A stretch of DNA of 64,000 nucleotides from Antechinus flavipes (Eukaryota): NCBI RefSeq assembly GCF_016432865.1, contig NC_067400.1, forward strand, positions 295,864,001 through 295,928,000, read 5' to 3'. Position 1 is the stretch's first letter; every line of letters starts with the position of its first letter. The notes beneath the pieces are model-generated. The model was not told the origin of the DNA. It worked only from the letters and a program-made list of their open reading frames with translations, and made no database searches. This document shows, in pieces, positions 30,551 to 40,261 of the stretch. Made by a program: the position numbers and the translations under genes.

Positions 30551-31166
30551 TGAGGAGGGGAGCCCTAAAACTCTCTCTCAAACTTGGGGGTGAGAAGAGC
30601 TTGAGAAACTTCCTCAGAGAAGCTCTCCCTGAGAGACCCACCCCAGGGAATCAAGATAAAGTGGTTTCATTCTGATATCTGAGTGGGACTAGTTGAGTCC
30701 AGGACCACTTCTCTATTGAATTGGAGATTAGTCCAGGGACATTCATTCAATTGGAAGATTCTCTATTTTGATTTCAACTCAAAACTGCTCCCAGCCCCCA
30801 CCAACAACTACCCATATAACAAGCTTCCTTCAGCCCAACTCCTTGCAGAGGACCTAGAAGCAGAAATTATGCCAAGGAACCTCTCTCTTCTTGGAATAGC
30901 TGCCACCCTCTGCCCGCTCCCTCTTTATCTCTCTCACCTATTTCCCTGACAGGACCTTATTCACCTCTCTGTCAGGATTTCTCTGCTAGAGGATTTCTCG
31001 GCTACTCTGACACTAAGGAAATCAGCAGACAAAAGCTGATTTCTCAGTTCTAATAATAAACATCTTTTACCAGTTTAACTTTTAGGTTTGTAAATTCATT
31101 TATGAAGGACCTACGCCAACCAGAAGGGGGTTCCCACAACTCCCTGCCCTGCGCAGAACCTCATCA
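30551..31166 (+). mobile_element. Solo LTR, class I ERV-like
   Basis: TGAGGAGGGG...CCTCATCA termini; 4-bp TSD TGCA (30547-30550, 31167-31170); AATAAA at ~31055; homologous to 35366-36355. Confidence 0.9.
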
Positions 31167-32854: not shown

Positions 32855-33888
32855 CCGTGTTTCCCTGATAATAAGACCCATCCCGAAAATAAGCCCTCCC
32901 CTTACTGTGTAAGATTCCTCTAAAATAAGCCCTCCCCCGAAAATAAGCCCTTTTGAGATTGCTACTGTAGTGAAGGTGATCCCCTGCACTACACGCTACA
33001 CTACGGTACCTTCTGTATGCACCATTCCCCCCCACCCCACCCCTACCCTCCCGGGGGGAAATGCATGCTGCGCTCCGAGCTGCATCCAATCAGAGCTGCA
33101 GCAGTGAGCATGTCATCCTGTTCTTCCCCAGTGATTTGCTTGCTGGCGCCATTGAGAGCAATGCCACAGAGGAGAGCTGAGGCAGGACAACATAAAAACC
33201 CAGTATGTAAGCAGGAGTGAGGGGGCATGATGGAGGATAAAAGAAGAACTCAGGGGGCATGATGGAGGATAAAAGAAGAACTCAGCCAGCACGCACCGCG
33301 CTAAAGAAATGAAGAACTTCCTTGCAGAGAGAAGAATAGATCAAGTAACGATTCCTACAGGAATGACTGCCTATCTCCACACCCTTGATATTGCAATAAA
33401 CAAGCCATTCAAGGACCATTTGCACATGGAAATCAATGACTATATTGAAAATAGAATGGAAAGAAATCAGCGTGGAAACTTTGTGAAGCCCTGTCTGCAA
33501 GAAGTAGTGACTTGGGTGAAGAAGTCATGGGATAAAATTACTGACAGCTATGTCACCAAGGCACTACGAGCAGGTTACCTGGACAAGACATGTTCATTTA
33601 AAGAGAGCTATATTGCTGGACATGACAGATTGGGTCCACTTCTTCTGAAGGAAATAGAGGTGCAAGACATCCAGGATGGAATTCAGGGTATGGACACTTA
33701 TGACGATGTTATTGAAGAAGATGACATGATCATTATTGAATAAAGGTACTTTTTTTGGTCACATTTACCTGTTTATTAAAATTGCTGTCAATGTTCATTA
33801 AAATAAGCCCTCCCCTGAAAATAAGCCCTCTGGTGTTTTTCTGTCCAAAAAAATAATAAGACAGTGTCTTATTATCGGGGAAACACGG
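32855..33888 (+). mobile_element. Internally deleted pogo/Tc2-clade (Passer-like) DNA transposon
   Basis: 23-bp TIR CCGTGTTTCCC(T/C)GATAATAAGAC with 1 mismatch (32855-32877, 33866-33888); flanks TG/TA; subterminal AAAATAAGCCC repeats; DDE transposase remnant. Confidence 0.93.
33309..33743 (+). pseudogene. C-terminal fragment of a pogo-family (DDE_1) transposase, 144-aa open frame
   Basis: IPTGMTAYLHTLDIAINKPFKDHL matches the pogo IP.G.T..LQPLD..INKPFK motif; upstream in-frame (N)SASTHRAKE gives 35 residues to the last Asp (DD35D spacing); acidic tail. Confidence 0.88.
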
Positions 33889-35365
33889 TAGGAGAACCAA
33901 ACCTCACTTCGCTTTTAACCTTTGCATCTAAGTCCTTAAAAAGGAGGAAAGAAAACTTGAAGTGCAACAAGTTGTTAAGCAGGCCCAGTCATTTGGGCTT
34001 AGCACAGGTGGGTTCAGGAATGATGCCATGGCAATTAGTGAAAAATAGGAGCACATACAATAAAATAAAGCTGTATGCTGTTTAAATGGCTTTAACAATA
34101 ACCATTACACACCAATTCTTTTAGAGGCAGTAAAGTATCTGCTTTGTAAGAGGAAGGGGGAGACAAAAAAGACAAAAAAAAAAAAAAAAAAAAAAGCTCC
34201 AGAAAATGAAAGCATGGGGATGTGTGGCAGTTGGAAGGGGGAGAATCTGGGAGTGTGAAGGATGTCAGGCTTTTCTTTTCAACAGGCAAATACATTAACA
34301 TTAGAACAATAGATTTCCTTTCTAATCCTTTCAGAAAAGGTTGGTTTGCTTATCTCATCCAGGGGCTTCAAAAAAGGTAGCTCATAAAGCTAGCTGAGGC
34401 TTTATTTATCCATTTGGGTTTCTAGTGCAAGCACTCAGTATAAAAATATACTAGTAATTTTTTGTATAAGGATATCTTTTTAATCAGTCAAATTTAAACA
34501 AGATAGTAAAACATAAATAAAAGTAACTTACAATAATCACAAAAGTACATGATGCAAATTTACAATGCTAGTTGACCAATGATGGGGCCATTTGACAAAC
34601 CACTCTTTAATAGGAGGGATAGACTTCAAATCCCTGTAATCTTTAAGCATGATCCCTCTCCTTTCTTTCCAAATTTTTTTTGTAGATTCTGAATTGTCCT
34701 GGCAGCACTAGTCTAGAGAGCAAAACTTTTTATTATATTCAAACCACAGAAAACACACTCTTAGAAATATTCTTCATACAATAATGGCACTGTTATTGAG
34801 TTTCCTAAGGTCAAGCTAAAAATTAGCCTACTTAATAGAGTTTCAGCATCAAGATCTATGTATCTTATACAGGCTTAATTTGCAAAATGTAGGTCAATAC
34901 TTTGCTTTATGTAATAGATGTATTCCTTAAAAAATTGAGTGGAACATAAAATTTTAATGAGAGATCATAGATTAGAGTTGGCAGAGATTTCAGAGAACAT
35001 CTATTCTACCTCTCACTTTAAAATAAAACTCAAGAGAAATGACTTGCCTAAGGTCATTTAGGTTTAGGTAAAATAGAAAAATCTAACTCTCTGATTCCCT
35101 GATTCCAGCTGTCTTTTCCTATACTACAATGTTCTTCTAGTTAGTCATGATACTTAAAGGAACACTTTGGGCAAATCATTTTGAAAAAAGGGGAAAGGGA
35201 AAGGTGGTTAGGGAGTTTGAGACCTGAATTTGAATAGGAGATCAACTGCTTTGTAACTTTAAGCAAATTTCTTCTCCAGGCCTTTGTTTCCCTATTCATA
35301 TAAAATGTGTAATTAGACTAATTGATCTCTAAGGTCTCTTCCAACTGTGAATCCTGTATTGCTAT

Positions 35366-36355
35366 TGAGGAGGGGAACCCCCAAACTCTTTCTCTTTCCC
35401 CCTCTCTGATTTTGGGAATGAACCATGAGGTAAAACACTTGAAGTTCCTTGAGGGAGAAAATCTCCTTAAACCCTGACACTGTAAAGATGCTGCCCAAGG
35501 ACAGACAGTTTCATTCTGTAACCTAGGTGGGGCTAATTGAATCTGGAGTTGGAGATATCAATCCCATTGAATTGGAGAAACACCCATTCAATTCTAAGAT
35601 TTTCTATTCAATTCCAGGTGGGATTAGCTAGCTCAAGCTGAAACCCAGCTTGGAGACAACTTGGAACTCCCACCTCCCCCATCCCCCACTAGCCTCCTTT
35701 GATTTGTAGCCAAAGCTTCTATTATAAAAGAGCCAATCTAAAACCCTCTCTTTGCAGAGGAGCTAAAATGCCAAGGAAACTCTCTTTCTTCCTGGCATAG
35801 CAAGCCTCTGCCTGTTGGGATGATATTCTTTTCCAGGGATAACTTCTCTTTAACCTCACCTATTTCCGTAACGAGACTTATGCTCCTCTGTCGGGATCTC
35901 TCTACTAGAAATTTTACTTCTCTGCCAGGACTTCTCCACTACTTTACTTTCTGTCGGGACCTTGCTACTAAGAAAGTCAGCCTTTCTGTTCATGCATGGC
36001 AAAGGCTGACGTCCCAATGCCAATAATAAACCTTGTCTTATCAGTCTAGCTTTTTTGGGTTTGTAAATTCCTTTACAAAAAATCTCTGCACTGCCAGAAA
36101 GGAGTTCTCAAAACTCCATACCCATGGGCCAAATCCCAAGGGGATGTAGGGGAGCCAACCCTCTCCATTTGATTCCCTGAACCCCAAACCTGCCACTAGA
36201 CCTTATCATTTAACTCCCTGACAACCAGGAAATCTAATCTCACTTTGGTTTCCTGAATCTAATCTCATCATCTGGTTCCCTGACAACCCTAAATTTAGAC
36301 CTCATCATATTTTGGTTCCCTGACCAAAGGGACTCCCAAAATCTAAATCTCATCA
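35366..36355 (+). mobile_element. Solo LTR, class I ERV-like, with extended PBS-repeat U5
   Basis: TGAGGAGGGG...CTCATCA; TSD CTAT (35362-35365, 36356-36359); TATAAAA ~35722; AATAAA ~36025. Confidence 0.9.
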
Positions 36356-37141
36356 CTATGATCCCATAAACCCTTCTGTAATGTAAATTATCATTTAATT
36401 ATCAAAATGTTTTAGAAGTTCAGATTGTATATTGTGGATTTTCTCAAGGAAAGGGACATAATTAACCTATAAATTCTACTTATGCAAAGGGTCATTGGAA
36501 AGATATGCCAATTTCAAATTGATGGGGAGGAGGGAGTTGTTTGTTTTTTTAATGCTTGAAAATTTTTTAAAAGGAATGAAGTATTTCATTTTGGTGATAG
36601 AAATATTTTTAAATTGCAAATGCTTCCAGAGAAATTGGTAATGTTGCCTAATTTGCTTTAAGACTAAATGATTATTCTCTTATGATTTTTGCTGAGGCAG
36701 TGGAAGGGGAATGAAGTTTTGGTAGGGAAATTTGGGAACTCAAGGCATTCAATATCTGTGAATTGGACAGTATAGAATGCACTATCAAAAATCTACTTCT
36801 ATGCCCTGCTCCTGGTTTTGCTTAGATAAGCATCTTTTCATTTTCCATCCAACTGCACTCCTTTGGATTTTCCTCCTCTTCTCCCTTTCTGTGTTATATA
36901 TTAGATTTTAAAGTCTTTGAGGACAGGAACTGTATGTTGTGTTTTGGTTTTTTTTCATTTTTGTATCGGCATTACTTAGTTTTGTGACTGGCACAAAGCA
37001 GGCACCTAATAAATGTTTATTAAATTAATGAATAACTGAGATTTCCTTTGATGTGGAGATCTCTCTTCCCTTGTCAGGAAGAAGTCCATCTGGCTATTTA
37101 TCAGATATATCAATTCCCAAACTATCTTTTTTATAACTCCC

Positions 37142-39660: not shown

Positions 39661-40261
39661 TGTTGTGCCACAGTTTCCTTTTATTGTCCTAAATTTCCCT
39701 AATGGTCCTGCCTCAGTTTCCCTAATTGTTCTGCCTCCTTTTCCCTAAATTGTTCTGCTTCTGTTTCCCTAAATTGTTCTTCCTCAGTTTCCCTGGTTGC
39801 AACCCTCCTTTTCTGCCCATTAGAACTGAGATAATTAGGACTGTGGAGATCTGACATTCCAGAAAATCTGATTCCAGATGTCTTATCTCAGATACCTAAT
39901 TGGCATTGTTTATACCTCTAAATCCAGACTGCCTGGCTCTAAGCTGGATACCTCCTTAACGCCCAGTTTGTAAGAATTTATGGTCCTACCCCACCCCTCA
40001 CCTGTCAGAACCAGATTGATGGTCCCTGCCTGGAGATAACCGCTCCTCAGAATTTGGACCCCACCTCTCCCCCTGCCTGCCTTTATTTAGCTACCTGAGC
40101 TAAGAGTTATAAATATGTCACTGAGAACTCACATTCTCTGCTGGATGCTTTAGACATCAGCCCTGGGGGCATCCTGCCCCCAGCACAATCCTTCTCAGAA
40201 ATCCAAATAAAAATATTAAAAACTCTAATCTCTATCTTGCCTCAGTTTCTCTGGCATTACA
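39661..40261 (+). mobile_element. Solo LTR with ~23-bp tandem repeats in U3
   Basis: TGTTGTG...TTACA; TSD CTCC (39657-39660, 40262-40265); TATAAAT ~40108; AATAAA ~40206. Confidence 0.88.

Follow-up and report, generated by a model that had tools for sequence, protein, structure and literature searches.

The canonical U5-att-PBS junction of class I endogenous retroviruses (ERVs) consists of a CA, 2–5 nucleotides (nt) and an 18-nt primer-binding site (PBS). HIV-1 with dual or multiple PBSs was reportedly described by Li et al. in 1997 (Virology 238:273), a paper cited in PMC11181671. Passages of PMC8599865 place the stop of primer copying at 18 nt, and passages of PMC1084362 describe HIV-1 culture variants with multiple PBSs, making no mention there of capture into both long terminal repeats (LTRs) or of serial accumulation. 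In the account given by part of PMC3185550, MAL-type HIV-1 isolates carry a natural partial duplication of the PBS (23 nt, 14% of isolates), and solo LTRs are treated as lacking a PBS in passages of PMC12853362. Dual and duplicated PBSs are known from HIV-1. In the literature searched we did not find PBS arrays described in ERV LTRs, nor their serial capture by one LTR lineage; such LTRs may be described in subscription journals, in notes to Repbase/Dfam entries or in supplements. PBS arrays in ERV LTRs were not described in the passages of PMC11334065, PMC2664473, PMC2790888 and PMC3832253, the first two of which held no passage on the PBS.

The family described here was encountered in a window of 64,000 nt from Antechinus flavipes, which is the whole stretch of DNA that was analysed. 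It resembles the canonical gammaretrovirus-like junction in its TG...CA LTR, 4-nt target-site duplication (TSD) and CA followed by 2–5 nt and an 18-nt PBS, and shares with gammaretrovirus-like ERVs a purine tract before the 3' LTR and an MLV-type RNase H. Unlike the canonical junction, the family has up to seven earlier junctions in U5, which leaves PBS sequence in solo LTRs. Like the multiple-PBS variants of HIV-1 it has more than one PBS on one retroviral genome, whereas those variants are laboratory revertants and use different tRNAs. The MAL-type copy, as portrayed in the passages available, is heritable and lies downstream of the working site, as does a decayed leader copy in the long-array branch of the family; it differs in being one copy, outside the LTR and apparently without an LTR-end motif. 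The features of the window to which the text refers are as follows.

30551–31166, + strand: related solo LTR without units, TSD TGCA (from the sequence; nests among single-unit LTRs on trees)
35362–35365, + strand: left TSD, CTAT (from the sequence)
35366–36355, + strand: 990-nt solo LTR belonging to a gamma-like (class I) ERV family (TSD; relatives along the full length; internal part of the family with MLV-type RNase H)
35723–35729, + strand: TATA-like box, candidate only (from the sequence)
36025–36030, + strand: polyadenylation signal AATAAA, at the same place in the short LTR; the array lies downstream of the signal, in U5
36140–36167, + strand: probably what is left of an older unit, with most of its PBS gone and the end-like CTCTCCA closing it (by eye, resembles spacer and end of single-unit LTRs and of intermediates L244 and L245)
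36170–36208, + strand: unit 1, truncated Glu PBS (11 nt), U5-like spacer and end motif CTTATCA (in proviruses L235 and L236, Glu site and leader directly follow this unit)
36211–36242, + strand: unit 2, a Glu PBS changed at its 5' end, then a leader-like spacer and short end motif (in L189, L225 and L226, Glu site and leader directly follow this unit)
36246–36270, + strand: unit 3, 11-nt Glu PBS and end motif (of full length in one LTR of L316 and shortened in the other; junction of units 3 and 4 matched at 76 places)
36273–36307, + strand: unit 4, 12-nt Glu PBS, leader-derived spacer and CTCATCA (the LTR stops at this unit in 4 of 30 relatives, and its TSD is exact in L013 and L024)
36313–36355, + strand: unit 5, 13-nt Glu PBS with a 3-nt insertion, leader-like spacer and the true LTR end CTCATCA
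36356–36359, + strand: right TSD, CTAT (from the sequence)

With its TG...CA ends, a short TSD and no internal sequence, the 990-nt element at 35366–36355 is a solo LTR, and this copy would be a passive remnant of LTR-LTR recombination. The initial annotation had relied on the CTAT TSD to place the whole array within the LTR, and CTAT is indeed found on either flank. It had also described the neighbouring solo LTR as free of the array; this 616-nt LTR, which sits between two TGCA, stops in the alignment where the longer LTR is at about 36137, so that the longer LTR has about 220 extra nt 3' of the polyadenylation signal. The predicted RNA fold of 36100–36355 was mildly stable at most (z −1.97, 7 of 200 shuffles). 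Elsewhere in the window, an element of about 1.03 kb with 23-nt terminal inverted repeats resembles a DNA transposon (32855–33888), and a 24-nt unit is repeated in 4.3 copies at 39694–39794; similar repeats occur in the leaders of L313 and L314.

All five PBS-like motifs lie where they had been annotated. Compared with the tRNA-Glu complement, the motifs at 36170, 36211 and 36246 match at 10, 8 and 10 of 11 positions, that at 36273 matches over 12 unbroken positions, and that at 36313 over 13, after which a 3-nt insertion is followed by four more matching positions. Unit 1 too is preceded by an end-like motif, CTCTCCA at 36161–36167, comparable to the CTCTTCA in which the relatives L205 and L268 terminate, and judging from its letters the stretch at 36140–36167 is likely the leftover of a sixth, older unit. 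Because the units are unequal, at 27–48 nt, the array is not a clean minisatellite; TRF reports just one 25-nt repeat of 2 copies within it. Compared with the start of the L189 leader, the spacers are similar beyond shuffles in units 4, 2 and 5 (0, 14 and 59 of 2000 shuffles, respectively) and no better than shuffles in units 1 and 3 (194 and 837 of 2000). Beyond the LTR end and PBS that had been recognised at the outset, a unit also takes in the start of the leader, and it is from there that the spacers largely derive. Unit 3 probably arose from a full unit by loss of sequence between two CCCTGA repeats, and in L316 the full form is present in one LTR and the short form in the other. We rejected a steady decay from outer to inner unit, since agreement with the tRNA shows no steady increase towards the outside; from inner to outer, the commonest unbroken matches per unit are 11, 1, 11, 12 and 13 or 8.

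Aligned to the 3' end of tRNA-Glu, the units match far above chance. The window holds nine 11-mer matches with at most one mismatch where 1.14 are expected, a number reached in 0 of 100 shuffles, and four of the nine fall in the 150-nt array. The units agree at 7–10 of 10 positions with L057, a tRNA-Glu copy of the same genome, and at no more than 6 of 10 with any of 11 other tRNA genes found there, so that complementarity beyond chance is to one host tRNA 3' end. Rfam searches found only tRNA, in 7 loci. The working Glu sites at proviral junctions often have duplications of 2–4 nt near positions 9–13; the Glu PBS is self-complementary, with a 5-bp stem, and slippage may be favoured.

We then asked how widely the array occurs, using 36100–36360 as the query against the same genome. 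The search returned 2410 first-look candidates, a figure that is not a copy number; 40 of them were scored, and we read 30 loci. Each of the 29 other loci read, which are the closest relatives, has the array, with 4–6 units; four end after unit 4, 24 after unit 5 and one after a sixth. An exact 4-nt TSD is found at the outermost end in 13 of the 16 relatives with a readable start, with one mismatch in one and no TSD in two. A 32-nt stretch over units 3 and 4 occurs at 76 places within one mismatch (control 0). Two readings that would have undone the proposal are thereby excluded: a minisatellite unique to one locus by the 29 of 29 relatives with the array, and internal leader sequence beside a coincidental TSD by the 13 of 16 exact TSDs at the outer end. 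At least 53 copies belong to a sister array type of 4–7 units (control 0), 30 of which were read and three found interrupted by other sequence; by eye, its third unit looks like a fusion of window units 3 and 4.

An LTR end followed by a perfect 18-nt Glu PBS was found at 24 places (control 0), continuing into another end motif at 20, into leader and gag-like sequence at two and unclearly at two; among the array-bearing cases, the perfect site is the last unit in seven of eight. A near-perfect PBS with a second spacer type occurs at 122 places (at most one mismatch, control 0). Shortly after the PBS, 27 of the 30 read come to an end, and the 14 with a readable start have a TSD that is exact in six, has one mismatch in five and is absent in three. 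L155 and L156 are solo LTRs with three full-length PBS units of 43–45 nt each, and on trees they lie apart from the long-array branch, so separate arrays of full-length units exist in other branches. Together, the perfect and near-perfect PBSs of TSD-flanked LTRs and the arrays of L155 and L156 mean that intact PBSs lie inside solo LTRs.

Other variations within the family deserve mention. LTRs of an older branch (L033, L077, L162, L167, L169, L170, L177 and L193) contain the LTR-end motif twice, the copies being separated by only 2 nt of PBS, and this doubled motif is common to both LTRs in L212, L213 and L214. In single-unit LTRs, the 22-nt tRNA match is followed by a spacer with the same sequence as about 11 nt at the 5' end of the LTR itself, resembling a circle junction. 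The family LTR at L046 (G000:C4, about 8.40 Mb) has a perfect Glu PBS and is situated immediately 5' of a CpG-rich stretch that by eye could be a host gene's promoter and first exon.

Proviruses of the family use a tRNA-Glu site: we found 45 junctions of PBS and leader (control 0) and 30 leader matches, and in sister array types LTRs of the same family flank internal sequence with a PBS and a purine tract. The layout of array, PBS and leader predicted at the outset is thus present in proviruses. The family copies scanned are deleted and non-coding. One of 14 pieces matched Pfam, an RNase H piece in L213 (E 2.6e-13) whose best PDB matches are p80 of the MLV/XMRV type (E 1.6e-24), and the internal part of L272, an array-bearing provirus, aligns with that of L213; no reverse transcriptase domain was found in the two deleted copies scanned. 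The gammaretroviral-type RNase H and 4-nt TSD point to a gamma-like (class I) ERV family. For the window's own array type, each pattern tried gave 0 proviruses with a working site at or after unit 5, and a 3' LTR pattern for the exact type gave 0 matches; scans of 10 further stretches, and of several provirus loci examined earlier, revealed no 3' LTR. At L121:217–4183 an unrelated LTR element, whose primer site we take to be of the Lys type, is inserted beside a family provirus. By eye, inverted pieces of the family's own internal sequence adjoin the PBS region in L036 and L079, and in L211 and L255 a purine tract precedes the upstream LTR, which suggests tandem proviruses with a common LTR.

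The position of the working site varies among relatives. In loci found by searches with the leaders of array-bearing proviruses, the last intact Glu site before the leader comes after one unit in L235 and L236, after two in L189, L225 and L226, after three in L228, L233, L239 and L241, after four in L240, L249, L251–253, L306 and L340, and after five in L327 and L337; over all relatives with internal sequence the range is 0 to 5 units. The places of window units 2, 3 and 4 are accordingly working junctions in shorter relatives, and the place of unit 5 was seen as a working PBS in the sister array type only.

The initial annotation had expected both LTRs of a provirus to carry the array, followed by an intact PBS. 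Of 17 LTR pairs with captured units, read by hand, this is so in seven (L205, L217, L264, L268, L270, L271 and L272), in which the 3' LTR ends at the motif just before the Glu site; L264 and L272 have an exact TSD. The remaining ten are discordant: two have an equal number but a different unit, six a shorter 5' junction and two a longer one, so that eight of the 17 are unequal in unit number; among these, the 6:2 excess of shorter 5' junctions falls short of significance (p=0.29). Many pairs are probably hybrids of recombination or gene conversion, given this discordance and identities of 84–93% with many gaps. Proviruses of the long-array branch have a second, decayed copy of end and PBS in the leader. 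The 3' LTRs of L270, L271 and L272 end before the upstream Glu site, so that the downstream leader copy is unused; this also disposes of a switch to another tRNA in that branch, which the outer site, Lys-like by eye, had suggested.

To relate unit number to phylogeny, we built trees from the 400 nt upstream of the array, with the array itself left out. FastTree was run on 143 of 176 rows, the other 33 having too weak an anchor, and IQ-TREE on an 82-row subset obtained by removing 13 long rows and thinning large groups; loci for trees and correlations were chosen by patterns, and units were counted by hand, as automatic counting undercounts. Both trees show the same nesting, from unit-free and single-unit LTRs through those with 1–3 units and 4–5 units, where the window LTR lies, to those with 4–7 units, and several steps are supported at SH-aLRT 95–99. 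Median end branches shorten from 0.17 for LTRs with 0 units to 0.07 in the sister type. Unit number falls with end-branch length overall (rho −0.41, n=134, nine 'int' rows left out) and within the long-array branch (rho −0.34, n=81), related copies being treated as independent in both. The unit-free window LTR nests among single-unit rows, and one 4-unit row among 5-unit rows, which fits losses.

These data bear on the outward ratchet first proposed for this locus. Its core, the capture of old end and PBS junctions in both LTRs, is upheld, and one-way, always-downstream priming is not: the unused leader copy of L270–L272, fused and deleted units, the eight of 17 pairs unequal in unit number and the nested shorter rows all contradict a strict ratchet. 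Growth is net outward and not one-way. On these data the array is a lineage-wide part of the U5 of this gamma-like ERV family, and its units are likely former working junctions, composed of LTR end, tRNA-Glu PBS and leader start, which were duplicated and copied into both LTRs.

How this might occur can be outlined. The enzymatic step that we infer is one in which reverse transcriptase slips or switches template at short repeats common to the U5 end, the PBS and the leader start, and so duplicates the junction. Priming at the downstream copy would bring the upstream copies into minus-strand strong-stop DNA, and thus into U5 of both LTRs, and copies downstream of the site used would stay in the leader and decay. 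In the long-lived branch, the inner copies are cut to 11–13 nt or changed at the 5' end; such crippling and shortening probably reflect a cost of double priming. Priming at two sites has been proposed, in passages of PMC3832253, to leave a gap and abort copying, which would favour crippled inner sites. Losses could have two sources, deletion between units and, at the second strand transfer, annealing to an inner PBS, and the outcome would be accordion-like growth with a net outward trend.

Several other explanations have to be set against junction capture. Duplications and losses may have arisen in the chromosomal DNA of master copies, by replication slippage, unequal recombination or LTR gene conversion, with reverse transcription only propagating them. 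The many discordant LTR pairs, only 84–90% identical and with gaps, are what such an origin would produce, and U3 holds tandem repeats too. We nonetheless consider it unlikely, as gains are in register with the junction of end and PBS in separate branches (L155, L156, L073, L063 and the long-array branch), and capture in both LTRs would still require priming downstream of the captured copy. It is somewhat more credible, if still doubtful, that some units originated not from duplication of the leader junction but at the right-hand DNA end, where the tRNA primer itself would have been copied beyond position 58 as far as 55 before a template jump. At the 122 places with the second spacer type, the 18-mer is extended by four further tRNA-complement positions, CpG decay allowed, to 22 nt in total. 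These four positions are present in 0 of 45 proviral junctions, and in the 30 copies read they are followed by the end motif in 27 and by leader in 0. L209 and L269 have the 22-nt unit type in the 3' LTR only, and a second stop one nt before U54 is reported in a passage of PMC8599865. Yet just two of the positions go beyond those that the leader already matches, a single origin with spread by recombination fits equally well, the 22-nt unit is in both LTRs of L205 and L268, and read-through leaves the leader-like spacers of units 2, 4 and 5 unexplained.

Tandem repeats are common in LTRs and the units are degenerate, as would be expected of an ordinary U5 tandem repeat or locus-specific minisatellite that resembles a PBS by chance. 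Such a coincidence can practically be dismissed in view of the perfect 18-mers within TSD-flanked solo LTRs (14, with the TSD exact in six, one mismatch in five and none in three), the specificity for tRNA-Glu, the family-wide array and the working sites of proviruses at the same places. A different question is why the array was kept. The extra PBS copies might serve as putative decoys or additional targets, either for 3' tRNA fragments or for KRAB zinc-finger proteins that bind the PBS. According to passages of PMC12853362, repression by 3'-tRFs acts through PBS-derived sites that solo LTRs normally lack, and in the family longer arrays mark the younger branches. We regard retention for this reason as improbable: the inner units, being 11–13 nt long or changed at the 5' end, would pair less well over the full length, and a passive trend accounts for the pattern.

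LTR boundaries are usually taken as fixed by the primer site, and under the junction-capture reading the boundary has moved many times in one natural lineage. The record left in the LTRs is readable, so that strand-transfer errors and the use of dual PBSs may be tested from genome data. That solo LTRs lack a PBS is a rule broken here, with consequences for LTR annotation tools and for estimates of how many target sites tRNA fragments and KRAB zinc-finger proteins have. A bolder interpretation, which we offer as speculative and on balance unlikely in its entirety, is that of a self-archiving retroelement, whose LTR would record in order up to seven earlier priming junctions, with independent capture in several branches and with the 22-nt units as fossils of the tRNA primer, left by read-through past m1A58 in an ancient germ line. 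If this were true, thousands of solo LTRs would have spread PBS arrays that host tRNA fragments and zinc-finger repressors could read.
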